Assembly: GCA_947628125.1 (NCBI GenBank)
Contig: CANQYR010000001.1
Location: 1-35,473 of the forward strand
Length of the DNA: 35,473 bases
Source of the DNA: an uncultured Bacilli bacterium
Lineage (GTDB): Bacteria > Bacillota_I > Bacilli_A > RF39 > UBA660
Reading direction: 5' to 3'
Below the pieces are notes generated by a model. The model saw only the letters and a program-made list of their open reading frames with translations, was not told where the DNA came from and searched no databases. Both the position numbers and the translations under genes were made by a program. The number at the start of each line of letters is the position of its first letter. The stretch's first letter is position 1. Positions 4,638 through 26,230 of the stretch are shown piece by piece.

Positions 4638-4641
4638 TATC

Positions 4642-6288: not shown

Positions 6289-6324
6289 CTATTATATAGA
6301 TTTTTAATAGCTTTGGCAAATATT

Positions 6325-6558: not shown

Positions 6559-6566
6559 ATTTCCCC

Positions 6567-7163: not shown

Positions 7164-7171
7164 ACTACATA

Positions 7172-7618: not shown

Positions 7619-7630
7619 ATCCCTAGCCTC

Positions 7631-8713
7631 CTATATCATCTTGAGTAAAATCTCATTCATAATATATAGTTTGTCACCAGGAATAAAAATATATTCTTTT
7701 TTTTGCTTCAATTCCTTACTTTTAAGAAGTGGCTTAAGCGGATAAACACTACCTAAATCCACATCATACTTTCTCTTAAACTCTTCTAAACTAATGCCCT
7801 TTGTCTTTCTAAGACCCAGCATAACTTCATTATCCATAATCTCTTGCTTTGGTAAAATTTTCTCTTCTAACCGAAAATTTTCCTTTAAATACGCTAAAAA
7901 ACTTCTCGTATTAGCATACCTTACCTTATCAACATACCCACAAGCACCAAGCCCAAAACCATAATATTCCTCATTATTCCAATAGCCTAAATTATGAATA
8001 CACTCCTTATTCTTCTTTGCAAAATTACTAACCTCATAATGATTAAAACCACTTCTAATTAAAGTATCAACAATCGTCTCATACATCAAATACTCATCAT
8101 CTTCATCAATTAAAGGAATATTATTAACCTTCAAAAGCGTATGATCTTCTAACTGCAGACTATAAGTACTAATATGATCAGGCTTTAACTTCAAAAACAA
8201 CTTCAAATCTTTTCTTAAATCATCTAAACTTTCATTATAAAAACCATAAATCAAATCCAAATTAATATTATTAAAACCTAAACTCCTTGCCAAAGCAATC
8301 TTTTCCTTTGCCTCAAGAAAAGTATGACTTCTTCCCATTAAATCTAATAAATGGGGCTGAAAACTTTGAATACCAATACTTAAACGTGTCACATTATAAA
8401 ACTTCAAAAGCTTCAAAAAATTCATATTTATATCCGCCAAATTACATTCAAAAGTAAACTCAATATTCTTCATCTTATTTAACTTCTTAGTCAAATTAAG
8501 CAAAAATTCTAACTCCTCTAAAGATAAAGATGAAGGACTTCCGCCACCTATATAAATTGATCTTATATCCTCACCCATATAATAATTATCAATCTCCAAA
8601 GCTAACTTTTTCAAATACATCTTTGCCCACTTAGAATCATAAAATAACTTACAAAAATCACAATATGAACAAATGCTTTTACAAAAGGGAACATGAATAT
8701 AAACACCTTTCAT
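7631..8713 (-). CDS. hemW: Radical SAM heme chaperone HemW (HemN-like, oxygen-independent coproporphyrinogen oxidase family)
   Basis: 360 aa. YIHVPFCKSICSYCDFC contains the CxxxCxxC cluster in the HemN/HemW context. Its position downstream of lepA matches Bacillus. Confidence 0.9.
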   Translation of the reverse strand: MKGVYIHVPFCKSICSYCDFCKLFYDSKWAKMYLKKLALEIDNYYMGEDIRSIYIGGGSPSSLSLEELEFLLNLTKKLNKMKNIEFTFECNLADINMNFLKLLKFYNVTRLSIGIQSFQPHLLDLMGRSHTFLEAKEKIALARSLGFNNINLDLIYGFYNESLDDLRKDLKLFLKLKPDHISTYSLQLEDHTLLKVNNIPLIDEDDEYLMYETIVDTLIRSGFNHYEVSNFAKKNKECIHNLGYWNNEEYYGFGLGACGYVDKVRYANTRSFLAYLKENFRLEEKILPKQEIMDNEVMLGLRKTKGISLEEFKRKYDVDLGSVYPLKPLLKSKELKQKKEYIFIPGDKLYIMNEILLKMI

Positions 8714-8735
8714 TTAAACGCCTCCCTAACAAAAC

Positions 8736-8744
8736 ATTATAGCA
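8736..8744 (-). promoter_or_regulatory. Extended -10 element TGcTATAAT upstream of hemW
   Basis: The minus strand reads TGC TATAAT (TATAAT at 8741..8736). The -35 region is weak. An RBS GGGAGG precedes the ATG at 8713. Confidence 0.45.
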
Positions 8745-8802
8745 AAAATTTTTAAACTTTAAAATACAGCTTGACAAATACTTGCCAAAACAAAAAAAAG
8801 GA

Positions 8803-10035
8803 TTAAATCCTCCTTCTTGTATAAATATAACCATTTTGACTATTAAATTTGCTAATCTTTTCATTTTCTTCCCCTAAATAATGATTACACAAACAAATTA
8901 AACTATCATTATTAAAAGGCATCTGATAATAAGGAATAGCATATTTCCTTCGAAAATTAGCCACCAAAAGTTTCTCTTTCTCATTCATACTTCCTATACT
9001 AATTTTCTTTTTAACAAGCGCCTGATAATCAATATCAAATATCTCCCGCAAAATATTACATGCCCTAGCCTTATTCTTAACCTTCGATCTTTTATAATCC
9101 GCATATAAAATCATTGCATAATTAAAATTACCACTTTCCCTAGACACACTTGTCATTAAATACTTAAGAGCATTTACATAAACAAACCCATGTTTTTTTG
9201 CCTCAAATAACATTCCATTTAAAACCGCATCTTCCGTATCTTTAATTAATAAAGAAAGCTCATAAATACTAATCTTAGTCGTAAAAAGAAAATGTAACCA
9301 AAAATTAGTCTTATCCTTCCATGCATAATTAACCTTTGTTGAATAAGAAATAGTAGTTTTATTATCTCTTTTATTCCATAAACTTAAAAACTCATCCTTT
9401 AAATACGCCAAATTATTATCAAGAACATGATACCTATCAGTACAAGTAGATATTCTTGAAATAGCTGCCGATGAAATATCATTTCGTAAAGCATAATCCT
9501 TAATAGTTAAATTTAAATGAAAACTATCTAAAAAATCCCTAACAAAATTCATATATTTTACCCGAAAATAATAATCCTGCAATAACTTTGACTCACAAAA
9601 TTCTTCAACATTAACATTAGGATATTTCTTCTTTAAAAAATCAACATGATCTAAAACAATATTAATATCAATTGGCCTATTAATAATTTTTTGGGCCAAT
9701 AAATACTTCCCTGGATCATAATATAAACAATACTTATTATTTAACTCCTTCAAAAGCTTTTTCAAATCATAAACCTTAACATTCTTCATAATTGCAATCT
9801 CTAATAAAGAATAACCCCTACTTAATAACATAACCACATCATCAAGTAAATCCTTATCAATAATTGTTCCCTTAGCTAAAGACTGCTCCATCAAAATACA
9901 ATTATACTTAACATTATCAGTAACCTTTAACTTTTCTAATACTTTCCTAACTGCAAAAATAGAAGTATTTAATAAATCTGAAATAACATTTACACTTTTA
10001 CCTTGCTCTGCTAAAGCAATTATTTCCTCATCCAT
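8803..10035 (-). CDS. Multi-HTH-repeat protein, paralog 3 (unknown family)
   Basis: 410 aa, collinear with the 422-aa neighbour. It has N-terminal sigma-r4/LuxR-like HTH modules and a shared C-terminal domain (..KKKISIGSMNEKEKLLVANFRRKYAIPYYQMPF..). The RBS GAAGAGG lies inside the 3' end of the upstream gene. Confidence 0.75.
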   Translation of the reverse strand: MDEEIIALAEQGKSVNVISDLLNTSIFAVRKVLEKLKVTDNVKYNCILMEQSLAKGTIIDKDLLDDVVMLLSRGYSLLEIAIMKNVKVYDLKKLLKELNNKYCLYYDPGKYLLAQKIINRPIDINIVLDHVDFLKKKYPNVNVEEFCESKLLQDYYFRVKYMNFVRDFLDSFHLNLTIKDYALRNDISSAAISRISTCTDRYHVLDNNLAYLKDEFLSLWNKRDNKTTISYSTKVNYAWKDKTNFWLHFLFTTKISIYELSLLIKDTEDAVLNGMLFEAKKHGFVYVNALKYLMTSVSRESGNFNYAMILYADYKRSKVKNKARACNILREIFDIDYQALVKKKISIGSMNEKEKLLVANFRRKYAIPYYQMPFNNDSLICLCNHYLGEENEKISKFNSQNGYIYTRRRI

Positions 10036-10039
10036 AACA

Positions 10040-11308
10040 TTACCTCTTCATTCTATAATATTTTCGTGACTCATTTATATTAAACTCAAACACATCTTCC
10101 AAACCATCGGCATAAAAAGCACAATAAGCCTGCAAATCTTTCCGATAAAATGGCATCCATCTACCCGGAATTGCATACTTAACCCAATGATGCGCAACAA
10201 TCTTTTTCTCATCATCACTCATCATCCTTATCGATTTTTTACTTTCCACTAACCTTTTATAATCAGTATCCATAACCTTATCATACATCTTCTTAGCAAG
10301 AGGTAAATTTGCCTTTCTAGCTAAAACATACTTCTTCCAAAATAACTGAGCCTTTTTCAAATTCTCCTCATCATACTCACTATAAGCAAGCGCATAATTT
10401 AAAGCATGCTCGTAAATTTTACTTTCCTTACCAACTTCCAAAAGCATCTTCCTTTTAAACGTCTCTTTATCCTCAATTTGTAAAAACATCATCAATTGCT
10501 CCAAAGATAAAGAAAACTCCCGCATAAAACTTACCCAAAACTTAACATTTTTCATAGCCTTTGTAATCTTTTCATCACATTTTTTACTATCAATGCCCTC
10601 AAAACTATGCCGATCGTTTATCCTTTTAAGCCTTGCCTCTTCAAATAAAGCCTTAATTTTTAAAGCCTCATCCCCATACATACACTTTAAAAACTGATGC
10701 TTATCCTTCATTAACAAAATATTAGTAATCGTCTCAAAACTAACATCACAATATAAAGCCAAATCCTTAGGCCCAATCAAAGGATTAGCTAAAAATAGTT
10801 CCACCATCTTACCATAACTAAGCCACTTCTTAAACATCCTTAATAAATTACAATTAAACTTTTCTTTATTAACAAAATTATATTCATCCTCTAATTTACT
10901 AAGCTTTTTCATTAAAACGCCATAATCTTGTTTATCATTTAAACTAATAGCCTTCTTTAACTTATCATATAAACACTTATCATCTTTTTCCAAATAACTT
11001 AAATGCTTATTAATATAACTTATCGAACTATCCGTTAAAACTGCCACTTCAAGCAAAGTATAACCATTTAAAACCTTATCAACTAACAATAACAAAAAAT
11101 CCTTATCATAAATAACCATATTATTAAGACCCATTGCAAAAATAATTTGATTGTACAAAAAAGGATTATAATGTTTACTTTTAGGCATATTCAAAAGCCT
11201 TAAATTATAATTAACCACACAAGCATCAACATCAAGTTCTAAAGCAATTTCATTTTTTTTCATCCCAAGTAAGCCTAGCCTTACAACCTCATCAAAATAA
11301 TAATCCAT
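10040..11308 (-). CDS. Multi-HTH-repeat protein, paralog 2 (unknown family)
   Basis: 422 aa. It has HTH-like modules (e.g. DKDFLLLLVDKVLNGYTLLEVAVLTDSSISYINKHLSYL) and the C-terminal segment ..ESKKSIRMMSDDEKKIVAHHWVKYAIPGRWMPF... The RBS GAGGGGG precedes the ATG. Confidence 0.75.
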   Translation of the reverse strand: MDYYFDEVVRLGLLGMKKNEIALELDVDACVVNYNLRLLNMPKSKHYNPFLYNQIIFAMGLNNMVIYDKDFLLLLVDKVLNGYTLLEVAVLTDSSISYINKHLSYLEKDDKCLYDKLKKAISLNDKQDYGVLMKKLSKLEDEYNFVNKEKFNCNLLRMFKKWLSYGKMVELFLANPLIGPKDLALYCDVSFETITNILLMKDKHQFLKCMYGDEALKIKALFEEARLKRINDRHSFEGIDSKKCDEKITKAMKNVKFWVSFMREFSLSLEQLMMFLQIEDKETFKRKMLLEVGKESKIYEHALNYALAYSEYDEENLKKAQLFWKKYVLARKANLPLAKKMYDKVMDTDYKRLVESKKSIRMMSDDEKKIVAHHWVKYAIPGRWMPFYRKDLQAYCAFYADGLEDVFEFNINESRKYYRMKR

Positions 11309-11336
11309 AAAAAAACCCCCTCGTTTTCTACGGCAT

Positions 11337-11365
11337 ATTATAAATTAATTAAAAATAAGTGTCAA
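11337..11365 (-). promoter_or_regulatory. Perfect consensus sigma-A promoter: TTGACA-17-TATAAT
   Basis: Indexed base by base: TTGACA at 11365..11360, the 17-nt spacer CTTATTTTTAATTAATT, and TATAAT at 11342..11337. It lies in the 64-nt gap upstream of the 422-aa paralog. Confidence 0.8.
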
Positions 11366-11372
11366 GAAAAAC

Positions 11373-12008
11373 TTATAACCGCTGCCGATGCGAGGCAAAA
11401 ACCTTATCTAGCTCATCTTGTAAATCTAAATCACCAATAGCCTTTACATTTTCATACAAAGTCGATACTGGAATATCATACTTCATACTTGTCTCAATCA
11501 AAGTCGCATTAAAATCAATAATATGATAAGCAAGGCGCCTTATATCTTCTAAAGACCTAATCCTTCCCCGAGTACCCATTTGTCCACCTAACTTAACAAA
11601 CATCTTGGCATATTTACTCCGAATTTTATCTAACTCATTACTAAGCTCTAAATCATAAAACAAATGCTTTTCATCCTTCAAAGCCCTTAAATACTTGTGA
11701 ACCAAACTCTCACTAACATCATTTCTTAAAGCTACATCTAAAACAGGATACCCCATCTTTAAATCACTAACAATACTATCTAACAAATCCTTATCAAAAA
11801 ACTCCCCAAACTTAGCCTCTCTAATAAACATAATTGCCTCAGCCTTATCTTTATCATAAAAAATACTAGTCTCATCACTTAACTTACTAATATACTCACT
11901 AACCGTTCTTTTAGAAACTAATTCCTTTTCCATAATCTGACCAACGCTTAAACCAGCTAATGCATCTTCTATAACCTTGTTAAACTTTTCCTTATCAAAT
12001 TTTCCCAT
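11373..12008 (-). CDS. Multi-HTH-repeat protein, paralog 1 (short form, three HTH-like modules)
   Basis: 211 aa. Its modules are LAGLSVGQIMEKELVSKRTVSEYISKL, LKMGYPVLDVALRNDVSESLVHKYLRAL and FNATLIETSMKYDIPVSTLYENVKAI. It starts 2 nt after the lepA stop. Confidence 0.75.
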   Translation of the reverse strand: MGKFDKEKFNKVIEDALAGLSVGQIMEKELVSKRTVSEYISKLSDETSIFYDKDKAEAIMFIREAKFGEFFDKDLLDSIVSDLKMGYPVLDVALRNDVSESLVHKYLRALKDEKHLFYDLELSNELDKIRSKYAKMFVKLGGQMGTRGRIRSLEDIRRLAYHIIDFNATLIETSMKYDIPVSTLYENVKAIGDLDLQDELDKVFASHRQRL

Positions 12009-12010
12009 AA

Positions 12011-13813
12011 TTACTTCTCCTCACTACTTAAAACCGCTAAAAAAGCTTCCTTAGGTACCATTACATTACCAATACTCTTCATCCGTTTTTTTCCTTCCTT
12101 TTGCTTTTCCAAAAGTTTTTTCTTCCGCGTAATATCCCCGCCATAACACTTAGCTAACACATTCTTCCGCATAGCCATAATATTTTCCCGTGCAATTACC
12201 TTACTACCAATCATCGCCTGAATTGGTACCACAAATAATTGCCTTGGAATTACTTCCTTTAACTTCTTTGTTATCAATAAAGCTCTTTGATACGCCAAAT
12301 CCTTGTGCACAATCAAAGACAAACAATCAATTACATCACCATTAAGTAAAATCTTCATCAACACCAAATTACTAGCCTTATAACCAATAAACTCATAATC
12401 AAAAGAAGCATAACCTTTTGTATAACTTTTTAACTTATCAAAAAAATCATAAACTATCTCCGATAAAGGAAGCTCATAATGAATATTAACCCTAGCCTCA
12501 TCAATATAATCCATCATCTTATAAATACCCCTTTTGTTTTGACAAAGCTCCATTATAGACCCAATATACTCCTTAGGCACAATAATATTTGTCAAAATAT
12601 AAGGCTCCTTAATTTCCTTAATCTTAACCGCATCGGGCATATCATTAGGATTATTAACCAAACACATTTTCCCATTAGTTAAATAAACTTCATAACTAAC
12701 ACTAGGATTAGTCGCAATAACAGAAATAAAAAACTCTCTTTCTAGCCTTTCAATAATAATATCCATATGTAAAAGCCCTAAAAAACCAACCCTAAAACCA
12801 AAACCTAAAGCCTCACTTGACTCAAGTTCAAAACTTAAAGCCGCATCATTTAACTTTAACTTCATAAGCGCTTCTTTTAAAGCCTCAAACTTATTAGGTT
12901 CCAAAGGAAAAATACCCGAATACACCATAGGCTTCATCTTCTTATAACCAACAATTGCTAAAGAAGCTTTATTATTAACTAACGTTATCGTATCCCCAAC
13001 TTCAAACCCAGAAATATCCTTAATAGATGCACAAATATAACCAACATCCCCACTTTTTAAAACATCAACTTTTTTCTCCTTCGGCGTATGAATAAACAAA
13101 TCCGTTACAATAGAAGCCTTACCACTAGCCATTAATAAAATCTCATCTTTAACCTTTACCTTACCTTCTACAACCTTAATTAACCCAACTACCCCCTTAT
13201 AAGGATCAAAATAACTGTCAAAAATAAGCGAACGAAGCGGTTCATCATCTTTTTTTAAAGGTGGCTTAATTTTTTTAATAATTGCCTCTAATAAAGAAGA
13301 TATTCCCTCACCCGTCTTACCACTAGTTAAAATAATATCTTCCCTCTTAAAACCAAGAACCCTAACTAACTCATCTTCCACCTTTGAAATATTAGCATTA
13401 GGTAAATCAATCTTATTAATAACCGGGATAATATTTAAATCCGCTTCCATTGCCAAATACAAATTAGCTAACGTCTGCGCCTCAATTCCTTGCGAAGCAT
13501 CAACAACTAAAATCGCTCCCTCACAAGCCGCTAAAGATCTACTAACCTCATAAGAAAAATCGACATGCCCTGGAGTATCAATTAAATTTAATAAATACTT
13601 TTCCTTCTCATACTCATAAGTTAAACTAACAGCATTAAGCTTAATAGTTATTCCTCTTTCTCTTTCCAAATCCATATTATCTAATAATTGATCCCGCATC
13701 TCAAAATTCGAAACAGATCCTGTATATTCCAAAATACGATCTGCTAAAGTACTTTTACCATGATCAATATGCGCGATAATCGAAAAATTCCGAATATTCT
13801 CCTGCTTAATCAT
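12011..13813 (-). CDS. lepA: Translation elongation factor 4 (LepA)
   Basis: 600 aa. [20 protein letters not shown] (G1 motif), DTPGHVDF and NKIDL are present, and the protein is collinear with LepA over its full length. Confidence 0.98.
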
Positions 13814-13830
13814 AAACTCACCTAAAAACC

Positions 13831-13859
13831 ATTATACATAAAAAAAAGTTTTAAGTCAA
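13831..13859 (-). promoter_or_regulatory. Sigma-A type promoter for lepA: TTGACT-17-TATAAT
   Basis: TTGACT at 13859..13854, an indexed 17-nt spacer, and TATAAT at 13836..13831. The RBS GGTGAG precedes the ATG at 13813. Confidence 0.7.
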
Positions 13860-13862
13860 AAA

Positions 13863-15377
13863 CTATAAAACCATCTTATCATTATCTAAAGACTCATTAA
13901 CAACTAAATAAGAAGTAGAAAATAAAACACTCGCCATCGCACAAGAAGCTTCTAAAGCCTTCTTTAAAACCACATAATCATCTAAAATAAACGTCTCATT
14001 AAAGCCTTCCCAAACCTTTTTGTCATAATTATAGACATAATTAAAATTCCTACTCTTTGCCTCTTTCGCATAATAATCACCATCTAAACCTAAATTCTCC
14101 ATAATTTGCTTAAAAGGCCTAGTCAAAGCATAACAAAGTATTTCATAACCATCATTTTTTCCAAAGATGTTATCACTAATAGAAAGCAAACTAACACCCT
14201 CACCAAGTAATATACCCTCATGTGCAAAACTAATAGCTTCCAAAGCATCAATTGCCCGCATTAACTTTTCCTTTCTAATCGTCTTAGTTAAACCCCCAAT
14301 CAAAACTCTAGCTGAAAGACAATTAATATTGCTTATTCTCTCATCTAATAACTCCTTTTCATAAGAACTCAAAGCTTTTTTTTCTAAAGTCCTTATATAT
14401 CTTTTAACCTGCCCTTTATCTTTTTTAAACCTTATAATTGTCTCATCCAAATTACCCTCAATTGCTAAAGCCTGACCTAAAGAACTAAAACTACCATCAC
14501 CTGTAAGACTAGCATCTAGTAAAAAAGCCAAATCATTTAAAATTTCCTTTCGCTTCTTAGCATAATCAGTATTTAAAACCAAACAAATCTTTCCCCCATT
14601 TAAATTTATTTCTCTTACTTGATTAATAACTTCCTCACTAAAAAAATTAGCCATAATAACTAAACTAGCTTTGGACTTTAATACGCTATTTATCGCATCC
14701 GCACAAAAATTTAAATCATCAACATCTCTATCTAAAAGCAAAACATAAGGGTTTAAAAACTCATAACTATTACTAGTTCCAAGTAAAAAACTAGAACAAA
14801 GACCACAAGGCACTACATAACCATTTATAAAACTTACACTACACTTTTCCTCACCTTCTAAAATCTTAATTCCCCCTTTATTTAAAACCTTAGTATAAGC
14901 CTTAAAAATACACCTACCTATTTCCTCATCATTAGCAGCATTAATAGCAATTTTTAACAAATCTTTTTTTAAAGGCTTAACAAGAAGAGTTTTTAATCTA
15001 TCCAAAACCAAAGATAAAGCCTCATTAAGTTCATTCTTTAAAACCACTCCATTTTTACCACTTTTAATTAAAGAAATACCCTTAACCATCAAAGCCTTAA
15101 ACAAAACAAGCGTTGTTGTCGTTCCATCACCTACCTCCAAATCAACCTTCAAACTTGCTTCCTTACATAAACTTAAAATCGAATTAATGACCTCATCACA
15201 ACTATTAATACACTTAGCAATACTAACACCATCATTAGTCACAAAAGGACTTGCAAAATCACTTATAATTACATCCTTTCCCATTGGTCCTAAAGTAGAA
15301 CTAACCGGATCACACAAAAGCAAAACCGCATCTAAAATATTATCTAGTAATGCATCACCACCAACAACTTTTTTCAT
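13863..15377 (-). CDS. Divergent Cpn60/GroEL-family chaperonin paralog (no GroES partner, no GGM tail)
   Basis: 504 aa, collinear with GroEL. Shared segments are TLGPMGKDV, TNDGVSIAK, EVGDGTTT, ..ERISNINCLSARVLIGGLTKTIRKEKLMRAIDALEAISFAHEGILLGEGVS.. and FILDD..AL. The GroEL GGG motif reads GEG here. Its ATG overlaps the upstream stop (ATGA at 15374..15377). Confidence 0.8.
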   Translation of the reverse strand: MKKVVGGDALLDNILDAVLLLCDPVSSTLGPMGKDVIISDFASPFVTNDGVSIAKCINSCDEVINSILSLCKEASLKVDLEVGDGTTTTLVLFKALMVKGISLIKSGKNGVVLKNELNEALSLVLDRLKTLLVKPLKKDLLKIAINAANDEEIGRCIFKAYTKVLNKGGIKILEGEEKCSVSFINGYVVPCGLCSSFLLGTSNSYEFLNPYVLLLDRDVDDLNFCADAINSVLKSKASLVIMANFFSEEVINQVREINLNGGKICLVLNTDYAKKRKEILNDLAFLLDASLTGDGSFSSLGQALAIEGNLDETIIRFKKDKGQVKRYIRTLEKKALSSYEKELLDERISNINCLSARVLIGGLTKTIRKEKLMRAIDALEAISFAHEGILLGEGVSLLSISDNIFGKNDGYEILCYALTRPFKQIMENLGLDGDYYAKEAKSRNFNYVYNYDKKVWEGFNETFILDDYVVLKKALEASCAMASVLFSTSYLVVNESLDNDKMVL

Positions 15378-16093
15378 TTACAATCACCCATTTCTATAAT
15401 ATTTTTCCAATACTTCTTTGGCATAAAACGCATCTGACATATTGCATTTTCTCTTTCCTTAATACTAATCGTCTTAAAAAATACCTTCCATAAATCACTA
15501 ACATCTTTTTCAACAGCAGAAAAAGTCTTATTAATATCATCTAAAGAACAATTAATAAAGTAAGAACGCCCTTCATAATATATCAAAGCTAAATGCCTTA
15601 ATTCATCATAAATTATCCAATTTTCCTTTTTAAAACGCCTTTCAAAATGACTAGCTAAATAATATATTACATTATTACTAGGAGCAAAAGTGGCAAACAA
15701 AAAACCACTTTCTAACTGTCTAAACCTTAAAAAACCCTTCATCTTATGTGCTTCATGTAAAACATTTTTCCTAAGCTTTAAAGCTAAATTTACACAATTT
15801 AAATATCGAAAATTTAAAACCTTAATTCCATACTTACGATAATTTAATAACAAATAATAAATTACCAACTCCTTGCCTTTATAATCCGCTAAAAAAATGC
15901 TAAAACAAAGATTCTTTATCCTCGAATCTAAACAAACATTTCCCATCCTAACCTTATAAGGCTTAGAAAATAAATCCCTAACATAATCTTTTTCTACAAC
16001 AATATCATATGGCTTAATGCTCTTTGTAATTAACACATCAACTGTCCTTAATAAATGTTTAAAAGAACCATCATACAAATACACATTATTCAT
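15374..16093 (-). CDS. DUF4130 / TIGR03915-type probable DNA metabolism protein (partner of the radical SAM protein)
   Basis: 239 aa. The N-terminus MNNVYLYDGSFKHLLRTVDVL matches the pattern I recall for this family. It overlaps the upstream radical SAM gene by 8 nt. There is no fused uracil-DNA glycosylase domain. Confidence 0.7.
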   Translation of the reverse strand: MNNVYLYDGSFKHLLRTVDVLITKSIKPYDIVVEKDYVRDLFSKPYKVRMGNVCLDSRIKNLCFSIFLADYKGKELVIYYLLLNYRKYGIKVLNFRYLNCVNLALKLRKNVLHEAHKMKGFLRFRQLESGFLFATFAPSNNVIYYLASHFERRFKKENWIIYDELRHLALIYYEGRSYFINCSLDDINKTFSAVEKDVSDLWKVFFKTISIKERENAICQMRFMPKKYWKNIIEMGDCK

Positions 16094-17300
16094 TGCAAAA
16101 CAAACTTAACTGCTGAAAACTATCAGCCTTATCCTTATCCTCTAAAATTAAATTAGCCATAATAAAGTTTTTATTAAAATAACTATGATCTAAAAAATAC
16201 TTACCATCACATAAAATAAAATACTTGGCTCTTTTAATAACCACCCCAATCTTCTTTAAATCCTCCATACCAAGCCGATAATAAAGCCTCATCTTAACAA
16301 TTCTTTTGGCGCTTTTAACACCCACACCAGGAATCCGTAATAAATCATCATAACTAGCCTTATTAATTTCCATTGGAAAAATATCCAAATGATTAATCGC
16401 CCAGTTAGCCTTAGGATCAAGTAAAACATTAAAATTAGGCGTCTTTACACTAAGCAAATCATCAACCTTATAATGATAATATCTAAGCAAAAAATCAGCT
16501 TGATAAAGCCTATGTTCTCTTTTTAAAGGAACAAATTTCAAACTAGGCAGTAAAGCATCTTTATTAACACCAACATAAGCCGAATAAAAAACTCTTTTCA
16601 AATTAAACTTCTTATATAAAGATTCACTTTGCTTCATAATCTGATAATCACTATCCATACTAGCCCCAATAATAACCTGCGTACTTTGCCCAGAAGGTGC
16701 AAAAAAAGGACTAACATTTTCTTTAATACTACCCATCACATTTAAAATATTTTCCTTAGACTTATCAGGCGCTAAAAGCTTAAGACTATTACTACTAGGC
16801 ATCTCCACATTACAACTTAACCGGTCAACTAATAAACCCAACTTCTTAATTAAATAAGAACTACTACCTAAAATAGCCTTACAATGAATATAACCGTTAA
16901 AATGATAATCATGCCGAAGCATCGATATAACCTCAATTAACTTTTCCATCGTATAATCAGGATCCTTAATAATTCCTGAACTTAAAAACAATCCCTCGAT
17001 GTAGTTGCGGCGATAAAAATTAAGTGTAATCTCACATATTTCTTTAGCACTAAACATCGATCTTTTAACATCATTGCTCCGCCTATTCGGGCAATACTTA
17101 CAATCATAAATACAACTATTAGTTAACAATATTTTTAAAAGCGAAATACACCTACCATCTGCTGAAAAAGAATGACATATCCCACTTCTATAAGCATTAC
17201 CAATACCATTAGTATTCTTTCTTTGACTACCCGAAGAAGAACAAGAAGCATCATACTTAGCCGCATCCGCTAAAATAGCAAGCTTTTCCTTTATATTCAT
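16086..17300 (-). CDS. Putative DNA modification/repair radical SAM protein (TIGR03916-type) with a C-terminal helix-hairpin-helix
   Basis: 404 aa. It has an N-terminal Cys-rich segment (YDASCSSSGS..GICHSFSADGRCISLLK), the radical SAM cluster CIYDCKYC (CxxxCxxC) and a C-terminal HhH (LLRIPGVGVKSAKRIV). Confidence 0.85.
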   Translation of the reverse strand: MNIKEKLAILADAAKYDASCSSSGSQRKNTNGIGNAYRSGICHSFSADGRCISLLKILLTNSCIYDCKYCPNRRSNDVKRSMFSAKEICEITLNFYRRNYIEGLFLSSGIIKDPDYTMEKLIEVISMLRHDYHFNGYIHCKAILGSSSYLIKKLGLLVDRLSCNVEMPSSNSLKLLAPDKSKENILNVMGSIKENVSPFFAPSGQSTQVIIGASMDSDYQIMKQSESLYKKFNLKRVFYSAYVGVNKDALLPSLKFVPLKREHRLYQADFLLRYYHYKVDDLLSVKTPNFNVLLDPKANWAINHLDIFPMEINKASYDDLLRIPGVGVKSAKRIVKMRLYYRLGMEDLKKIGVVIKRAKYFILCDGKYFLDHSYFNKNFIMANLILEDKDKADSFQQLSLFCNE

Positions 17301-17318
17301 TTTTTATCACCATTAAAA

Positions 17319-17657
17319 TTATACAACAAATGTAAATAACGTTTTTAAAACATCAATCACTTTTGTAATACCATCAGTCATAAACTTCTCCACCCCACCT
17401 GCTATTTTAATACCCGCCTTACTAGTATTACTTGCATAATCTTCTTTTACATCACTTATATAATCTTTAATATCAACATCCTTACCTAACTTTACATCTT
17501 CCTCAAATTGCCGCATCCCCTCTTCTGTAACAACTGCCTTTTCATTTAACTTACCCTCATAATAACCAGTACTAATTGCAATCGTTAAAGATATATAAAC
17601 AATAAATAATAAAAGCAAAATCCGCAAGAAAATATTTGGCTTTTTCTTCTTTTCCAT
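17319..17657 (-). CDS. Small membrane protein, YqxA-like (DUF3679-like) by position and size
   Basis: 112 aa with an N-terminal TM helix. It lies immediately downstream of spoIIP and overlaps it by 1 nt, which is the position yqxA occupies in B. subtilis. Confidence 0.55.
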   Translation of the reverse strand: MEKKKKPNIFLRILLLLFIVYISLTIAISTGYYEGKLNEKAVVTEEGMRQFEEDVKLGKDVDIKDYISDVKEDYASNTSKAGIKIAGGVEKFMTDGITKVIDVLKTLFTFVV

Positions 17658-18517
17658 TATCCTATCACCGCCTTAATACTCTTAGCCAAAACATCCATTG
17701 TCAAATTAACTTCATTAATAAAATTATATGATGAACCAACCTCAATTAAAATAACATTGCTATCTAAATCCTGATTATAAACCCCATTATTATAAGGACC
17801 ACCCTTTCTCATAATTCCCCTTGAAATACCCAAAACCTGCTTATTCATCTCATCACTAAGTTCTTTAGCTAACTTCTCATTTTCCTCATAACCATCATGA
17901 TCAACACCAATAACAAACAAAACTTTCGCATACGATAAATCTTTCAAACTAATAGTAGAACTACTATAAGAAATAGAATCTCTATGCAAATCAATAAAAT
18001 AATTCAAAGAAGGATACTTTTCAATTGCCTTTTCTAAAAGCAACCGACTAGCCTTATAACTATCAGCATAATTAAAATTATTTTCCAATAACAAATCAGC
18101 CATATCAGTTGTTTCCACCATCGAAGAAACACCCAGTCCATTTAACTTTTCCCTTAAAATATAACTAGCCGTCATAACCGATGGATTAATACCATAATCC
18201 ATCTTCAAATCAATATAATACTCCTCCTTTTGATGCGAATTATATATATACACCAAAGGCTCATCCTTGTTCTCTAAAGGATTAGGATCCGGAATATAAA
18301 CTGACTTACCATCATCTTCATTTTGATCATAACTACTAAAAGTTTCCTTAAATATTGAACTCAAAAGATTACCCGAATTAAACTGCCTTTTAACATAAAA
18401 ATTAAAAACCGATGGATCAACAAAATAAGAAAAAAATAAGATAAAACTAACTAAAAAAAGAAAACAAAATATAACCACCTTAAAACGCCTTGGTCTTTTA
18501 CTTTTAAACTTCCCCAT
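17657..18517 (-). CDS. spoIIP: Stage II sporulation protein P (SpoIIP)
   Basis: N-terminal TM helix; ..IYNSHQKEEY.., NYFIDLHRDS and ILIEVGS are typical SpoIIP motifs. I prefer the ATG at 18517 (MGKFKSK, RBS GGGTGA) to the GTG at 18526 used by the track. Confidence 0.88.
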   Translation of the reverse strand: MGKFKSKRPRRFKVVIFCFLFLVSFILFFSYFVDPSVFNFYVKRQFNSGNLLSSIFKETFSSYDQNEDDGKSVYIPDPNPLENKDEPLVYIYNSHQKEEYYIDLKMDYGINPSVMTASYILREKLNGLGVSSMVETTDMADLLLENNFNYADSYKASRLLLEKAIEKYPSLNYFIDLHRDSISYSSSTISLKDLSYAKVLFVIGVDHDGYEENEKLAKELSDEMNKQVLGISRGIMRKGGPYNNGVYNQDLDSNVILIEVGSSYNFINEVNLTMDVLAKSIKAVIG

Positions 18518-18552
18518 AATTATCACCCATAAATATTATACAAAACAAACAA

Positions 18553-18578
18553 TAAAAAAAATGTCGTTTTAAGACATT
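18553..18578 (-). terminator. Intrinsic terminator after gpr
   Basis: The minus strand reads AATGTC-ttaaaac-GACATT followed by a T8 run. The loop contains the gpr stop codon. Confidence 0.6.
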
Positions 18579-19303
18579 ATAATTTGATTAATTACCAAAG
18601 AAACCAAATGGCTCATTTTATCAATATCTTCCTCTAAATTAAGCTTAGAAAAATACCCATTCTTTCGCTTCCATAAAGTTGGATACCCAATCATCAAAAC
18701 TGGCACCCCAAAAGTCTTTTGATTAATACACTTATTATCCTTTAAAGCATCAGCATAAACAATACCACAATCATTAACCTCTAAAGTTCGATTAAGTAAA
18801 CTATCATTTTCCGTTGCCAACGAATCAATTATCAAAATAACATCTGGCTTTAAATCATGAACCACATTCGAAATAAGCCGAAAAGAAGAAATACCACTTT
18901 TATTAGTTACCTCAGGACTAAACAAAGCCACCTTAGGTATCATATAAATATCATTATAATGATTTGTCGCGATAATATTATTTAAACATTTAACGCCAAA
19001 AGAATCACCTAAAATAGATGAATTTCCTAAACCTAAAATTAAAATTGTTCCCCCTTTATGATACTTCTTCAAAAATAACCGCAAAATCTTTTTCAAAACA
19101 TTAGCAATAACCTTATCATCCCGATAAAAAGCAATATCATCAAACTTAATAGTAAAATAATCACCCTTGCCATGTTTGATCTTCGAAACAAGCTTATCTT
19201 GAACATAATAATGATTCACAATAACATTTTTTTCCTTTTTCGTATCAATTAAACACTCATTAGTAAGGACTAACCCAGCATCTAAAAACAAATTATGTTT
19301 CAT
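18569..19303 (-). CDS. gpr: Germination protease GPR (peptidase A25), unusually short form
   Basis: 244 aa. LILGLGNSSILGDSFGV corresponds to B. subtilis LIVGLGNWNVTPDALGP. PDVILIIDSLAT corresponds to PDFVIAIDALAA, and FGVPVLMIGYPT to LGVPVIAIGVPT. Both catalytic Asp positions are retained. Its position between tyrS and spoIIP is consistent with gpr-spoIIP synteny. Confidence 0.8.
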   Translation of the reverse strand: MKHNLFLDAGLVLTNECLIDTKKEKNVIVNHYYVQDKLVSKIKHGKGDYFTIKFDDIAFYRDDKVIANVLKKILRLFLKKYHKGGTILILGLGNSSILGDSFGVKCLNNIIATNHYNDIYMIPKVALFSPEVTNKSGISSFRLISNVVHDLKPDVILIIDSLATENDSLLNRTLEVNDCGIVYADALKDNKCINQKTFGVPVLMIGYPTLWKRKNGYFSKLNLEEDIDKMSHLVSLVINQIIMS

Positions 19304-19320
19304 CCTTAAATCACCAATAT

Positions 19321-19350
19321 TATTATGACAATTAACCTAAAAAATTATAC
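19321..19350 (-). promoter_or_regulatory. Forespore sigma-G/sigma-F type promoter upstream of gpr: GTATA-18-CATAATA
   Basis: Indexed: GTATA at 19350..19346, an 18-nt spacer, and CATAATA at 19327..19321. This matches the sigma-G consensus GHATR-N17-18-CATXHTA. gpr is forespore-expressed in Bacillus. Confidence 0.6.
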
Positions 19351-20570
19351 TACTTCAACTTCAAAACAAAATACTTTTTCTTACCCTTTCTAAGTAAATG
19401 AACCTTCCTTTTATCCCCAAGTGTTAAAGACTCATCACAGACAATATCCCCATCTAAACTAATTGCCTTACCACTTAAAAACTCCCTTGCTTCCCTTCTT
19501 GAAGAGGCAATATTATTACTAACTAAAATATCAATAAGACTCATGTCTTTTAAAACTTCATACGTACTAACCCCATTAAACGCGACTAAAATATCATCAT
19601 CAGTTAAACTCTTTACATCATTGTTAAATAAAGCCTCAGATATTTTCTTTGCCTTATCATACTCATCTTCCCCATGTAAAAAGCTAATAATTTCATAAGC
19701 AAGCCTTTTCTGAGCAATCCTAAGTTCTGGCTTTAAAAAATGTTCCTTTATAACCAAGTCAATCTCTTCCTTACTTAAAAAAGTAAACCTTTTTAAATAA
19801 TCCTCCATCATCACATCTTCAAAATTTAAAATATACTGATACAACTCATAACTTGAAGTTTTTTCCTTATCAAGCCATAAAGCATTACCATAGGACTTAC
19901 CAAGCTTCATCCCACTTGCATCAACCGTCAAAGGCATACTAAAGGCATAAACTTCCTTATTATTTAACTTCCTTATTAACTCAATACCAGTAGTTAAATT
20001 ACCCCATTGATCAGAACCACCAAACTGTAAAGTAACACCATATAACTCATTTAATTTTTTAAAATCATAACCTTGAATCAACATATAAGAAAATTCTGCA
20101 TACGAAATACCAATATCCAATTGCCTCTTAACCAAATCTTTATTTAACATATAATTAACATTGATATATTTACCAACATCCCTTAAAAAATCAATATAAT
20201 TTATATCCTTAAACCAATCATAATTATTAACAATAACCACATCATCGCCAAATAACTTTTGTATCTGCTTCTTAATCTTAACAAAATTAGCTTCAATAAC
20301 ATTTATATCTGCTTTTTCTCTTTCCCCAGTTCCTCTTGGGTCACCAACTCTTCCAGTTGCCCCCCCAACTAAAATATAAGGCTTATGACCATATCTTTTT
20401 AAACGTTCCACCATCAAAAACGTTGGTAACTGCCCAATATGTAAACTATCCGCAGTAGGATCAGCCCCAATATAAAAAGATAAACCACCTTCATTTAACA
20501 ATTCTTTAATATTAGGATTAGATACATCCTTTATCAAACCCCTATATTCTAAATCCTCCCATAAAGTCAT
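19350..20570 (-). CDS. tyrS: Tyrosine--tRNA ligase
   Basis: 406 aa. It has HIGH-type (SLHIGQL) and KMSKS-type (KLGKS) motifs and a C-terminal S4-like domain. Confidence 0.97.
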   Translation of the reverse strand: MTLWEDLEYRGLIKDVSNPNIKELLNEGGLSFYIGADPTADSLHIGQLPTFLMVERLKRYGHKPYILVGGATGRVGDPRGTGEREKADINVIEANFVKIKKQIQKLFGDDVVIVNNYDWFKDINYIDFLRDVGKYINVNYMLNKDLVKRQLDIGISYAEFSYMLIQGYDFKKLNELYGVTLQFGGSDQWGNLTTGIELIRKLNNKEVYAFSMPLTVDASGMKLGKSYGNALWLDKEKTSSYELYQYILNFEDVMMEDYLKRFTFLSKEEIDLVIKEHFLKPELRIAQKRLAYEIISFLHGEDEYDKAKKISEALFNNDVKSLTDDDILVAFNGVSTYEVLKDMSLIDILVSNNIASSRREAREFLSGKAISLDGDIVCDESLTLGDKRKVHLLRKGKKKYFVLKLK

Positions 20571-20896
20571 TTAAAATCACCAACCTTTTCTATCATCTTA
20601 TCATATAAAGTATATAAATACTGAATATGCTTTTCTAACCAAAAATAATATATGACATAACATAAAACAAATATAAGCAATATCCCAAAAATAATCAAAA
20701 AATAACCACTTAAAAGACCCATAGCCATAAAAATAATTGTCAATAAAGCATAAAACATTGTTACTAACAAATGAATAAGCCGCTCATGATTAAGCCTTTT
20801 AATTAACCTATCAAACTCATCCAAATCTCTTAAAGAACAAGAACTTAAAATCTTTTTCTCATACTCTAAAATAACTTTCTTTACATACTTTTTCAA
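20567..20896 (-). CDS. Small membrane protein of unknown function
   Basis: 109 aa with two central TM helices. It is coupled by ATGA-type 4-nt overlaps to both the upstream gene and tyrS. Confidence 0.55.
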   Translation of the reverse strand: MKKYVKKVILEYEKKILSSCSLRDLDEFDRLIKRLNHERLIHLLVTMFYALLTIIFMAMGLLSGYFLIIFGILLIFVLCYVIYYFWLEKHIQYLYTLYDKMIEKVGDFK

Positions 20897-21780
20897 CTCT
20901 TCACCTTTTTCTTATAAATAACACTACAAATAATACTTATAATAAAACCAGGAATAATAAATAACCAAATACTCTTAGACAAACTATTAATTAAATTATT
21001 AACCAAATCACCAAAAGAAGCTAACTTATCTAAATACTCGCTTTTTAAAACCGTTAAAATTACAATCTCCACTAAAACCATCAAAAACGAATAAACAAAC
21101 CCTAACGAAGCATAATACTTAAAACATCTTTTCCTAACTAATAAATAAATAATAAATAATAACAATAATATTCCACAAGCCAAAGATATTAAAAAAACAT
21201 TACTCTTAATTAGCCTAATAAAATCCGTAACATCCTTCAAACTAATATTTTCATAAAGCATCAAATTATCCTGATCAATTTTATTCATAATATCCTTTGG
21301 CGAAGGAAGCATATTTATAATCTCATCAGCATGACTATCAAGATACTCATAAGCCTTTTCTTCATAACTTTCTAAAAAAACCTGCTCCTCCTTAGATAAA
21401 TCTTGCTGTAAAATTAAAATATTATCCTTTACTAAAGCCTCAATATCCTCCTTAGTAACTTTAATATCCTGTCCATTAGGATCTATAACCGCATTAATTG
21501 CATTAAAAGTATAAATACCCAAAAAATTCTTAGTTGCCTTGGAATTTAACACCTGCTCAATTGAATCTTCTGGCATTGACAAAGTTTTAAAAACTTTCCT
21601 TGAAATATCTAACAACTCTTGATTATCTATCTTCGTAATAAAAACACTCAAATCATTATCATTAACAGCCTTTAAAATACTTTCCTTACTAAGCTTTGAT
21701 CTTAAAACAAAACAAAACGTAAATACAATTAAAAGACAAACTACAATAATACTTAAAATGGTAGCCAAAAAACGTTTCAT
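20893..21780 (-). CDS. Membrane protein of unknown function (N-terminal anchor, ~170-aa extracytoplasmic domain, C-terminal TM bundle)
   Basis: 295 aa. Topology is inferred from the hydrophobic segments. I recognised no family motif. Confidence 0.6.
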   Translation of the reverse strand: MKRFLATILSIIVVCLLIVFTFCFVLRSKLSKESILKAVNDNDLSVFITKIDNQELLDISRKVFKTLSMPEDSIEQVLNSKATKNFLGIYTFNAINAVIDPNGQDIKVTKEDIEALVKDNILILQQDLSKEEQVFLESYEEKAYEYLDSHADEIINMLPSPKDIMNKIDQDNLMLYENISLKDVTDFIRLIKSNVFLISLACGILLLLFIIYLLVRKRCFKYYASLGFVYSFLMVLVEIVILTVLKSEYLDKLASFGDLVNNLINSLSKSIWLFIIPGFIISIICSVIYKKKVKS

Positions 21781-21855
21781 TTAAAATCACCATCCATTAA
21801 AAGAATACCAAAAAAAAAGCATTTTGGGAAATTTAAATAAAAAAAAAAAGAGCCA

Positions 21856-22416
21856 TTAAGCTCGTCCTGAATATTTACCATCACTAGTTGAAATAATAAT
21901 TTTCTCACCTTCATTAATAAAAAGTGGAACCTTAACAGTATAACCAGTTTCAATAACAGCATCTTTCATTGCATTATTGGCCGTATTACCCTTAACAGCC
22001 GGTTCAGTCTCCACAACTGTAAACTCAATTTTCTCCGGCAAAGTAACACCTAAAAGCTCACCTTCATAATATTCAAGACTAATTTCTAACCCTTCCTTTA
22101 AATACTTAGCTTCATTTTCTAATTTTGAAGATGGAACCTCTACTTGATCATAAGTTTCCATATTCATAAACACATAATTATTACCATCATTATATAAATA
22201 CTGCATTGTACTACGATCAATATGAGCCTTCTCAATCTTAATATTGGTATTATATGAATTTTCAACAACCGCGCCCGTCTTTAAATTCTTAAGCTTAATT
22301 CTAACAAACGCACTACCCTTACCAGGCTTTACATGTTGAAACTCCAATATCTGACAAAGATTACCATCAATAATAATTGTCATTCCATTTTTAATATCAT
22401 TAATATTAATGTTCAT
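21856..22416 (-). CDS. efp: Translation elongation factor P
   Basis: 186 aa. ..EFQHVKPGKGSAFVRIKLKNLKTG.. includes the conserved KPGKG loop. Confidence 0.97.
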   Translation of the reverse strand: MNININDIKNGMTIIIDGNLCQILEFQHVKPGKGSAFVRIKLKNLKTGAVVENSYNTNIKIEKAHIDRSTMQYLYNDGNNYVFMNMETYDQVEVPSSKLENEAKYLKEGLEISLEYYEGELLGVTLPEKIEFTVVETEPAVKGNTANNAMKDAVIETGYTVKVPLFINEGEKIIISTSDGKYSGRA

Positions 22417-22427
22417 CTAAATTCCCC

Positions 22428-22601
22428 CTATTTTCCTAATTTAGTCTCTTTAAAAACAACTTCTTGCCTACAATTTGGACAATACTTTTTAATTTCTAAT
22501 TTATCCGGAGTATTCTTCTTATTTTTAATTGTCGGACGAATTTGTTTACCACATCTTGTACACTTTAATCCCAAGAATTGACGATTTTCATTTTTTGCCA
22601 T
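22428..22601 (-). CDS. rpmG: 50S ribosomal protein L33 (zinc-ribbon C4 form); below the ORF-track size cutoff
   Basis: Translated codon by codon: MAKNENRQFLGLKCTRCGKQIRPTIKNKKNTPDKLEIKKYCPNCRQEVVFKETKLGK* (57 aa). It shows the L33 pattern CxxC...NKKNTPDKLEIKKYCPxC...ETK. The RBS GGAGG lies 6 nt upstream of the ATG at 22601. Confidence 0.9.
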   Translation of the reverse strand: MAKNENRQFLGLKCTRCGKQIRPTIKNKKNTPDKLEIKKYCPNCRQEVVFKETKLGK

Positions 22602-22673
22602 AATAAACCTCCTTTTCTAATAAAGAAAACTAACAGTATTATAACAAAGATAAACTAAAATTGTAAAGCATTT

Positions 22674-23318
22674 TTAAAATAAGAACGACAATAATAACTG
22701 AAACTTATCCTGAAAAAGAAAAACCACAAACAAAGATGAAGCCAAAAAAGGCCCAAAAGCAACAAGCTTTTCCCTATCATTAAATAAACTATACACCGTA
22801 TAAGGAAGAGCCAAAAAAACCGCTAAACATAAACTACATAACCCCAAACCAAAACCTAAAAACAAACCAATTATAAAACATAACTTAATATCACCAAAAC
22901 CTAAAGTTGGCCTTTTAAAAATATAACTGGTCACCTTATAAAAAATATATATGAGCAAAAACAATAAAATACCACCTATAACACCACTTAATAATGCCTC
23001 AAACCCAAAATAAACAAACTTTAAAATAATAATTAAAACCCCACTTAAAACCAAAGGCGTATCAAGAATAATCATATACTTAATATCAGTTATAAAAATA
23101 CTAATCAAAAGTAAACTTACCAAAGAACTAGCCCAAAACATATAAGTAAACCCAAAATTATAATAATAAAATAAAAACATCAAAAAAAGTAAAACAATTA
23201 CTAAAACATATAAACTAGCCTTAGCTTTTTTCCCAAAAGGATAATTACTAAAAAAGCAAAGCAAAAAACCTAATATTACCCCTAATAAAAACAATATAAA
23301 AATATCCATAATAATCAC
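22674..23318 (-). CDS. Type IV prepilin peptidase (A24 family, ComC/PilD-like, peptidase domain only)
   Basis: 214 aa, polytopic. Both aspartyl motifs are present: FITDIKYMIILD and LGFGDIKL. Confidence 0.8.
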   Translation of the reverse strand: MIIMDIFILFLLGVILGFLLCFFSNYPFGKKAKASLYVLVIVLLFLMFLFYYYNFGFTYMFWASSLVSLLLISIFITDIKYMIILDTPLVLSGVLIIILKFVYFGFEALLSGVIGGILLFLLIYIFYKVTSYIFKRPTLGFGDIKLCFIIGLFLGFGLGLCSLCLAVFLALPYTVYSLFNDREKLVAFGPFLASSLFVVFLFQDKFQLLLSFLF

Positions 23319-23406
23319 CCTTTATTAATTTTATTTTAACAAACCCACCTTAAATATTCAATGTCATTGACAAAAAAGCATAAAATAATAACAAGGAAGT
23401 GATCAT

Positions 23407-26178: not shown

Positions 26179-26209
26179 TACCTCACCGCTTTCCTAACGC
26201 ACTTAAAAT

Positions 26210-26218
26210 ATTATATCA
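26210..26218 (-). promoter_or_regulatory. Extended -10 element TGaTATAAT upstream of mutS
   Basis: The minus strand reads TGA TATAAT (TATAAT at 26215..26210). The -35 region is weak. Confidence 0.4.
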
Positions 26219-26230
26219 CAAAACAAACTT

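Follow-up and report, generated by a model that had tools for sequence, protein, structure and literature searches.

The 35,473-nt stretch analyzed here, referred to as the window, comes from an uncultured Bacilli bacterium (contig CANQYR010000001.1, assembly GCA_947628125.1) and carries three overlapping genes for a radical S-adenosylmethionine (rSAM) protein, its DUF4130 partner, and a diverged Cpn60/GroEL-like ATPase. Taken singly, the rSAM and DUF4130 proteins are typical of their families, and specialized GroEL paralogues are already known as a class; what is new is the combination of an SOS-type rSAM/DUF4130 operon with a third component that is obligate, derived from GroEL, and unnamed. 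The explanation favored here, with middling confidence, is a repair operon of the SOS type that is equipped with a dedicated, GroES-independent chaperonin-like ATPase. It is carried by the linkage of the third gene to the cassette in relatives from differing genomic surroundings, by the overlaps between the genes, by an intact ATP site next to the loss of GroEL-specific features, and by LexA-type boxes at the promoters of the relatives.

Linkage of the chaperonin-like gene to the rSAM/DUF4130 cassette

The neighbors of the chaperonin-like gene were tallied over non-identical loci for which the Cpn60-like protein was the sole query. The rSAM and DUF4130 genes lie upstream at 61 loci, and the DUF4130 gene lies upstream at 8 more, where the contig ends before the rSAM gene. 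GroES is found upstream at 76 loci, and the number of loci with both the cassette and GroES upstream is 0. Of the 6 loci with neither neighbor, one (L157) is a fragment of 74 residues, and the others hold Cpn60 relatives of low identity. Chance adjacency of chaperonin and cassette is rejected by the 61 and 8 linked loci, which lie in differing flanks. The first-pass annotation, made from the letters of the window, had suspected this link, and the adjacency is present in every relative with enough sequence. It had named low hidden Markov model (HMM) scores and a loss of adjacency in relatives as grounds for doubt; the scores for the assigned families do not fall under threshold, and the adjacency is not lost.

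The canonical GroEL loci provide a built-in negative control for the linkage. A scan of one genome per species yields 4 family loci, each preceded by rSAM-DUF4130, and 76 canonical GroEL loci, among which 75/76 have groES upstream and 0 the rSAM gene. A GroES probe that is positive in 75/76 canonical loci detects no homologue in any family locus. A metagenome scan with a family-specific sub-alignment adds about 60 further loci with the same linkage result. Five Cpn60-like homologues were looked up, and all of them (5/5) belong to loci with an rSAM gene (402-406 amino acids [aa]), a DUF4130 gene (246-254 aa), and a Cpn60-like gene (504-514 aa) in the same order and with overlapping ends, set in five different flanks. 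In the reverse direction, 4/4 close rSAM homologues have a Cpn60-like gene downstream; distant loci with the pair and no Cpn60-like gene occur in Pusillibacter faecalis, Acetoanaerobium noterae, and Fusobacterium vincentii.

The anatomy of the module was compared in 53 non-identical complete trios. The DUF4130 gene stands directly 3' of the rSAM gene in 53/53, with a gap of at most 1 nt in each (-8 in 28 trios and -4 in 13), and the DUF4130 and Cpn60-like genes overlap in 52/53 (-4 in 29). For the window, direct reading confirms the coupling described in the first pass, with overlaps of 8 and 4 nt and an upstream gap of 18 nt. The distance matrices of the three proteins correlate pairwise with a Pearson r of 0.84-0.91, as expected for genes that are inherited together, and the tightest correlation is that of DUF4130 with the Cpn60-like protein (r = 0.905). 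On these comparisons, the three genes make up a single operon, which is passed on and relocated as a whole.

The chaperonin-like proteins form a well-delimited group. A protein search with the Cpn60-like query returns approximately 70 clusters at 32-43% identity and 230-392 bits, with canonical GroELs reaching at most 175 bits, and these clusters carry no descriptive protein name in any of the sources searched. A profile search of 1.84 billion representatives returns approximately 55 clusters (50% identity) at 487-687 bits, followed by a gap in the scores, and the family is monophyletic in a neighbor-joining tree. Just under the family in the profile search are two proteins of approximately 1080 aa with two tandem Cpn60 domains by Pfam (P0173 and P0175). 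Many other diverged Cpn60-like proteins of 500-530 aa (P0176-P0266), the nearest inspected of which have no Gly-Met tails, make up a separate heterogeneous group between the trio family and the canonical GroELs.

The carriers are uncultured gut bacteria from rabbit, ruminant, and human gut samples, with a GC content of 19-34% in the fetched loci, and are labeled Bacilli in the source records. One locus (L014, CAYNFP010000005.1) is labeled "uncultured Muribaculaceae bacterium" but has a GC content of 23-27%, and probably owes its label to an error of binning or naming. No other member of the family seen here is as diverged as the Cpn60-like protein of this locus, which has 29% identity to that of the window. 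Two relatives have a gene for a LigD primase-polymerase within 1-2 kb on the downstream side of the trio (L159, 10230..11215; L160, 9380..10714), and in another (L116, about 3700, minus strand), a gene for a helix-turn-helix (HTH) regulator, WYL/YafY-like by eye, diverges from the trio promoter. The LigD genes and the HTH regulator may be further damage-response neighbors.

Properties of the three proteins

The rSAM protein of the window scores 591.9 bits against TIGR03916 (cutoff 343.5), covering model positions 1-414 of 415, and 31.9 bits against PF04055 (cutoff 29.5). The CxxxCxxC cluster CIYDCKYC (C63/C67/C70) is invariant in 53/53 rSAM orthologues, as are C20, C42, C51, and C364, which gives seven invariant cysteines in total. 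Judging from this conservation, the latter four may suffice for an auxiliary cluster. A C-terminal helix-hairpin-helix (HhH) around residues 311-349 is supported by HHH_3 with a borderline score (27.4 bits, cutoff 27), and PF00633 stays under its cutoff (22.8 bits, cutoff 24). The DUF4130 partner scores 185.9 bits against TIGR03915 (cutoff 112.25) and 149.5 bits against PF13566 (cutoff 27). The domain scan of this 239-aa protein gives DUF4130 only and no uracil-DNA glycosylase (UDG) domain; all DUF4130 partners in the clade are without a UDG domain, and the orthologues measure 239-264 aa. A C-terminal UDG fusion of family 4 is frequent among TIGR03915/DUF4130 proteins but does not define them. 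The family assignments of the first pass for the three proteins, namely, TIGR03916, TIGR03915, and PF00118, are all above the HMM threshold. Its description of the CIYDCKYC cluster, the N-terminal cysteines, the C-terminal HhH, and a partner lacking UDG is likewise in line with these results, with HHH_3 over its cutoff by a narrow margin. A PADLOC scan of all three trio proteins matched no defense-system model, and with zero hits, a reading of the trio as an anti-phage defense system is rejected.

The Cpn60-like protein scores 106.3 bits against PF00118, with a gathering threshold of 34.3, and aligns with GroEL end to end at approximately 27-30% identity. It remains under all GroEL-specific cutoffs, with 224.6 bits on TIGR02348 (cutoff 582.1) and, over the models NF009487 and NF000592, scores of 239.1 bits (cutoff 352), the best for any GroEL model, and 236.1 bits (cutoff 397). 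The GroEL models give 205-239 bits, bar one at 140, and the thermosome/CCT models give 19-52 bits; by these scores, the protein is group I-like. The AlphaFold2 (AF2) model of the monomer has a predicted local distance difference test (pLDDT) value of 90 and a predicted template-modeling (pTM) score of 0.83 and shows the full three-domain GroEL fold. A Foldseek search with this model finds GroEL chains as the best matches (E = 1e-41, TM 0.86-0.90), in agreement with the sequence search of the PDB. The TNDGVTIA motif of the protein is of the type found in GroELs of Firmicutes, a hint that the protein may descend from a GroEL of that kind.

Residues were compared in an alignment of 69 family members with E. 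coli GroEL and 41 canonical sequences. T30, G32, P33, D52, D87, G88, T89-T91, D398, G414, G416, and D495 are invariant in 69/69 members, and N479 is kept in 68/69; position 415 is variable (G/E/S/A), with E in the window protein. The family shares with canonical GroEL the predicted three-domain fold and the nucleotide-binding and hydrolysis residues that were checked. Because the residues of the ATP site are invariant and the full-fold model is confident, the Cpn60-like protein very probably has the GroEL fold and is active as an ATPase.

Other features set the family apart from canonical GroEL/GroES. In the apical groove for GroES and substrate, L234 is replaced by S/A and V264 by S, with the groove positions mostly still hydrophobic (199 L, 203 Y, 204 F/Y, 237 L/I, 259 I/V, and 263 L/I/V). 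The inter-ring contacts are altered, with A109 changed to N/E/K, V464 to E/K, and positions 452, 461, and 463 also changed. The R197-E386 pair is lost, and a segment of 7-8 residues near E. coli positions 427-434 is deleted. A GGM-type tail is found in 0/53 family members versus 58/76 canonical GroELs. Many members of the family (e.g., L001, L090, L094, and L160) show, after ...LVINE, a short polar tail ending in E plus L/M/I (NSEL, YNEL, or NNEI), which may be a family-specific motif in place of the GGM tail; the window protein ends in DKMVL, unlike this family ending. The mean pairwise identity within the 53 trios is 72% for rSAM, 48.5% for DUF4130, and 41.8% for the Cpn60-like protein, compared with 66% for 76 canonical GroELs from several phyla. 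The chaperonin-like component diverges at roughly the pace of its least conserved partner, also unlike canonical GroEL. Together with the lack of a groES neighbor, these sequence features describe a protein that no longer resembles the general GroEL/GroES machine.

Promoters of the module and its exceptional position in the window

The relatives share a layout 5' of the rSAM start codon that consists of one or two palindromes of the Firmicutes LexA (Cheo) type, a -10 element (TATAAT), and a ribosome-binding site (RBS; GGTGAT). The succession TATAAT-N-GGTGAT-N-ATG is common to nearly all of them. One palindrome lies at about -55 over the -35 element, and a second is often placed over the -10 element; examples are CGAACAAATGTTT, TGAACAAATGTTCG, GCAAACAAATGTTTGC, and CGAATATTTGTTTG. 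The boxes were scored against CGAAC-N4-GTTCG over 10 core positions in 55 unique upstream regions. A match of at least 7/10 is present in 50/55 regions and one of at least 8/10 in 38/55, with the matching relatives scoring 7-9/10, and 35 of the 50 matching boxes lie over the -35 element, at -55 to -59. The background in random 65-nt windows from the same loci amounts to 3.1% at ≥7/10 and 0.12% at ≥8/10. Strict GAAC-type sites in the scanned family loci are at the trio promoter in 12/13 cases. The pair-only locus of Acetoanaerobium has AAACATATGTTC upstream.

The recA gene of the window (34719..35420, within the region 34719..35473, minus strand) runs into the window edge, with its 5' end and promoter missing, and its 233 aa correspond to positions 103-321 of the RecA model. 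The recA promoters were taken from close relatives with 93-94% identity. In these, AAAACATTTGTTCG is found directly upstream of a TTGACA -35 element and is the sole site of at least 8/10 in each locus; one of them (L168) has the gene order recA-infC-rpmI-rplT, the same as in the window. Within the fetched family loci, the truncated recA of the window is the only SOS gene, and no lexA is present in the fetched DNA. Because the same motif precedes recA, a core SOS gene, the reading of the boxes as SOS operators is supported. The motifs indicate control by DNA damage and not by sporulation in the relatives, and LexA would bind to these boxes. Such damage-type operators, in place of heat-shock-type control, are a further difference from canonical GroEL/GroES.

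The window is the exception to this pattern (Table 1). The -10 element and the RBS are kept, and the 3' end of a 112-aa open reading frame (ORF) stands where the relatives have the distal box and the -35 element. The spoIIP/yqxA-like/lepA neighborhood is found only in the window, and the flanks differ at all other loci examined. By rSAM identity, the closest relative is L158 (71%); it is equipped with a box, a -35 element, and a -10 element of its own, in a different neighborhood. On this comparison, the trio has been docked behind spoIIP and the 112-aa ORF in the window lineage. Since operator and -35 element have been lost and the stretch between spoIIP and the trio shows no terminator-like site, read-through from spoIIP into the trio is possible, in this genome only. 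The first-pass annotation had raised the possibility of sporulation-phase expression. As a property of the module, this does not hold, because the flanks of the relatives differ and their promoters carry LexA-type boxes in 50/55 cases.

Table 1. Positions of the trio and of its flanking elements in the window
Feature	Position	Strand	Basis or remark
TIGR03916-family radical-SAM (rSAM) gene, 404 aa	16086..17300	-	ORF call and HMM
DUF4130/TIGR03915 partner gene, 239 aa	15374..16093	-	ORF call and HMM
Diverged Cpn60/GroEL-like ATPase gene, 504 aa	13863..15377	-	PF00118; under all GroEL cutoffs
8-nt overlap ATGAATAA, rSAM stop/DUF4130 start	16086..16093	-	Sequence read directly
4-nt ATGA overlap, DUF4130 stop/Cpn60-like start	15374..15377	-	Sequence read directly
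18-nt gap, 112-aa ORF to rSAM gene	17301..17318	-	Sequence read directly
GGTGAT RBS, kept	17306..17311	-	Layout shared with relatives
TATAAT -10 element, kept, overlapping the stop codon of the 112-aa ORF	17318..17323	-	Layout shared with relatives
Degenerate remnant of the -10-proximal LexA-type box, TTACATTTGTTG	17324..17335	-	Comparison with relatives
112-aa ORF ("yqxA-like"), N-terminal hydrophobic segment	17319..17657	-	Start overlaps spoIIP stop
lepA sigma-A-type promoter TTGACT-17-TATAAT	13831..13859	-	49-nt gap after Cpn60-like stop

The surroundings of the trio agree only in part with the first pass. HMM searches confirm gpr, spoIIP, and lepA as neighbors of the block, whereas the label "yqxA-like" for the 112-aa ORF is without a family hit (zero matches in Pfam, NCBIfam, and PADLOC) and is based on position only. 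The promoter of lepA is an 11/12 match and the best promoter within 8.8 kb; it marks the 3' boundary of the trio module. No terminator-like sites were found between gpr and lepA. The Rfam scan of the window gave two tRNAs only, with no rRNA and no riboswitch or leader near the trio.

Several observations concern the rest of the window, which has a GC content of 30%, is chromosomal, and bears nearly all of its genes on the minus strand. The GC skew of the plus strand is extreme and uniform along 1..35473, at -0.18 to -0.57 per kb. Two tRNA genes, Arg-ACG and Pro-TGG (3378..3578), were assigned to the strand opposite to most genes. For spoIIP, the GTG listed as start (18526) is probably incorrect, as the ATG at 18517 has a GGTGAT RBS at the usual spacing. 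Ribosomal protein L20 (33155..33682, minus strand; 175 aa) shows a C-terminal Rho_N-like extension, and the same fusion occurs in relative L168; against the NCBIfam "L20/unknown domain fusion" model, the window protein scores 160 bits, under the cutoff of 187. Three tandem genes 3' of lepA (8803..12008, minus strand), encoding 211, 422, and 410 aa, are mutual paralogues, with 27% identity over the full length between the 422-aa and 410-aa proteins (E = 1e-24). They have weak HTH-like N termini and no significant match in Pfam, NCBIfam, or PADLOC, with sub-threshold hits of the HTH type only. As companions of the trio, they are rejected, since they are missing from all other trio loci.

Proposed role, alternatives, and relation to known systems

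The favored explanation comprises several steps, most of which are drawn from sequence motifs and gene order. In the relatives, the promoter would be covered by one or two LexA/Cheo-type operators, and DNA damage would switch the operon on through RecA-stimulated cleavage of LexA. The three ORFs would be translated off one mRNA by coupled termination and re-initiation, as the gene overlaps suggest. The rSAM protein, with its SAM cluster at C63/C67/C70, a possible auxiliary cluster, and the HhH as a DNA-binding motif, would then process a DNA lesion by radical chemistry together with DUF4130 as a noncatalytic, nucleic-acid-binding partner; this step leans on family knowledge and on a preprint AlphaFold3 (AF3) model. 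That work predicts a DUF4130:rSAM heterodimer and a DHH-like noncatalytic fold for DUF4130 (bioRxiv 10.64898/2026.08.19.745780). A role of the cassette in mutagenesis or thymine modification has been proposed (PMC3765255). The Cpn60-like protein would be a private, GroES-independent chaperonin that folds, assembles, or stabilizes the Fe-S rSAM/DUF4130 complex when this is made in a burst, and we infer for it ATPase activity, ring formation, and specificity for this client. UmuC needs GroEL, and client-specific GroEL paralogues exist in some bacteria. In the window copy, placed between the yqxA-like ORF and lepA, transcription of the operon probably reaches it by read-through from spoIIP, starts at a weak remaining -10 element, or does both.

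A number of points weigh against this explanation. The best box match upstream of the window trio is 5/10, which is the background level, and 4 loci besides the window are also without an operator match. A search of RNA runs gave none that contains the window, and for a ruminant-gut relative, 2-3 short metatranscriptome contigs fall on the trio genes, a negligible trace. The pair manages without a Cpn60-like partner in Pusillibacter, Acetoanaerobium, and Fusobacterium, whereas the proposal has this clade need a private chaperonin. The AF2 model is that of a monomer, and the ring is putative. The translational coupling suggests near-stoichiometric synthesis, which a structural subunit would explain no less well than a catalytic chaperone. 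The arguments against a housekeeping role given below are indirect, as they are drawn from the fetched loci.

A doubtful but not negligible alternative regards the Cpn60-like protein as a built-in working part of the repair machine that is driven by ATP, with the chaperonin fold exapted. It might, for example, remodel or hold damaged DNA or nucleoprotein as a ring or clamp or gate the access of substrate to the rSAM active site. The Cpn60-like ring would then stand in a stable complex with rSAM/DUF4130 and act on damaged DNA or nucleoprotein, or enclose the radical chemistry, under SOS control, a picture that deserves the same doubt. The strict and universal gene overlap suggests a fixed stoichiometry, the correlation of distances is tightest between DUF4130 and the Cpn60-like protein, and the features of general folding (GroES binding, inter-ring contacts, and GGM tail) are lost next to an invariant ATP site. 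The lack of a UDG domain in every DUF4130 partner of the clade is also in its favor, and M. tuberculosis GroEL1, reported as a DNA-binding nucleoid-associated protein, offers a precedent. However, the apical groove is mostly hydrophobic, as for polypeptide binding, the Pfam scan of the Cpn60-like protein gave no DNA-binding motif, and a high evolutionary rate is unusual in a catalytic core subunit.

It is unlikely that the Cpn60-like protein is a general stress chaperonin that is co-induced by the SOS response and serves many clients, with no special tie to rSAM/DUF4130. Damage-type operators in front of the operon, the retained ATP site, and most of the hydrophobic apical residues would suit such a role, but the linkage is exclusive to one cassette at 61 and 8 loci, the translational coupling to DUF4130 is conserved, no co-chaperonin is present, and the fast divergence is unlike that of chaperonins with a broad range of clients.

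Distinctly unlikely is a sporulation-phase system that shares its expression with spoIIP, in the forespore or in the mother cell, and protects or repairs spore DNA. The spore photoproduct lyase SplB is a precedent as a radical-SAM enzyme of spore DNA repair, and the window trio stands 18 nt behind the 112-aa ORF and spoIIP with no terminator-like site between and with the distal operator and -35 element missing. Upstream of gpr (19321..19350, minus strand), the sequence GTATA-18 nt-CATAATA is found. It resembles the forespore (sigma-G/F) promoter consensus and would presumably fit the regulation of gpr known in Bacillus. Against this stands the absence of the sporulation neighborhood from every other locus examined and the fact that the relatives, even the closest one, L158, have promoters of their own with boxes.

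Highly improbable is a role as the sole, strongly diverged housekeeping GroEL of a reduced genome: the loci are low in GC, and some Mollicutes, which are related to low-GC Bacilli, have lost groESL, but no GroES homologue is found in the family loci compared with 75/76 canonical loci, no member has the GGM tail, a mean identity of 42% within one clade contrasts with 66% for canonical GroELs across phyla, and damage-type repression would be odd for an essential gene. According to a published study, bacteria with several chaperonins always keep one GGM-tailed copy (PMC11978752).

The module was compared with known systems. With the TIGR03916/TIGR03915 cassette, it shares two proteins over the curated cutoffs, adjacent overlapping genes, and the combination of CxxxCxxC and HhH. 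We take the COG1573-COG4277 operon to be this cassette, with COG4277, on our own reading, as its radical-SAM gene. This UDG-based operon is reported to be SOS-regulated in Verrucomicrobia, Alphaproteobacteria, and Bacteroidetes (PMC8565304), and in Acinetobacter the cassette is part of the damage regulon of DdaA (PMC12392091). Damage-type control of the trio fits this reported SOS/DdaA regulation. The trio differs in the addition of an obligatorily linked gene for a Cpn60-like ATPase and in a DUF4130 protein without a UDG fusion. The literature searched contains no paper tying a chaperonin to the rSAM/DUF4130 cassette and no biochemical characterization of the cassette.

Specialized GroEL paralogues include mycobacterial GroEL1/Cpn60.1, Myxococcus GroEL2, chlamydial GroEL2/3, the rhizobial groESL copies co-regulated with nif/nod, and cyanobacterial groEL2 without groES. 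The Cpn60-like protein resembles them as a diverged duplicate, often without its own groES or GGM tail, with presumed particular clients or conditions. It differs in that its gene is translationally coupled within the operon of the presumed client, behind LexA-type boxes, and in a much greater divergence, with 47-50 bits on the chlamydial GroEL2/3 models and 239 on GroEL. Phage phiEL encodes gp146, a GroES-independent chaperonin, and the group III bacterial chaperonins lie in dnaK operons. These too are ATPases of the chaperonin fold without a GroES-type lid and in unusual gene contexts, but the Cpn60-like protein is group I-like by HMM, and its gene is chromosomal and has no phage genes in its surroundings.

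Although the rSAM/DUF4130 cassette is widespread and under damage control, it has no known activity. The obligate Cpn60-like partner narrows the ideas on how the rSAM/DUF4130 complex is built, and co-expression of the trio may give soluble, active enzyme for the first time. If the Cpn60-like protein proved to be a working subunit, SOS control would act on a repair factor derived from a chaperonin and not on a folding helper. The window copy shows how such a module can be rewired, with the operator overwritten and the operon docked behind sporulation genes. For the family as a whole, the trio represents an unusually clean case of chaperonin specialization, in which a monophyletic, GroES-less, and tail-less lineage is associated with one presumed client and with LexA-type operators.

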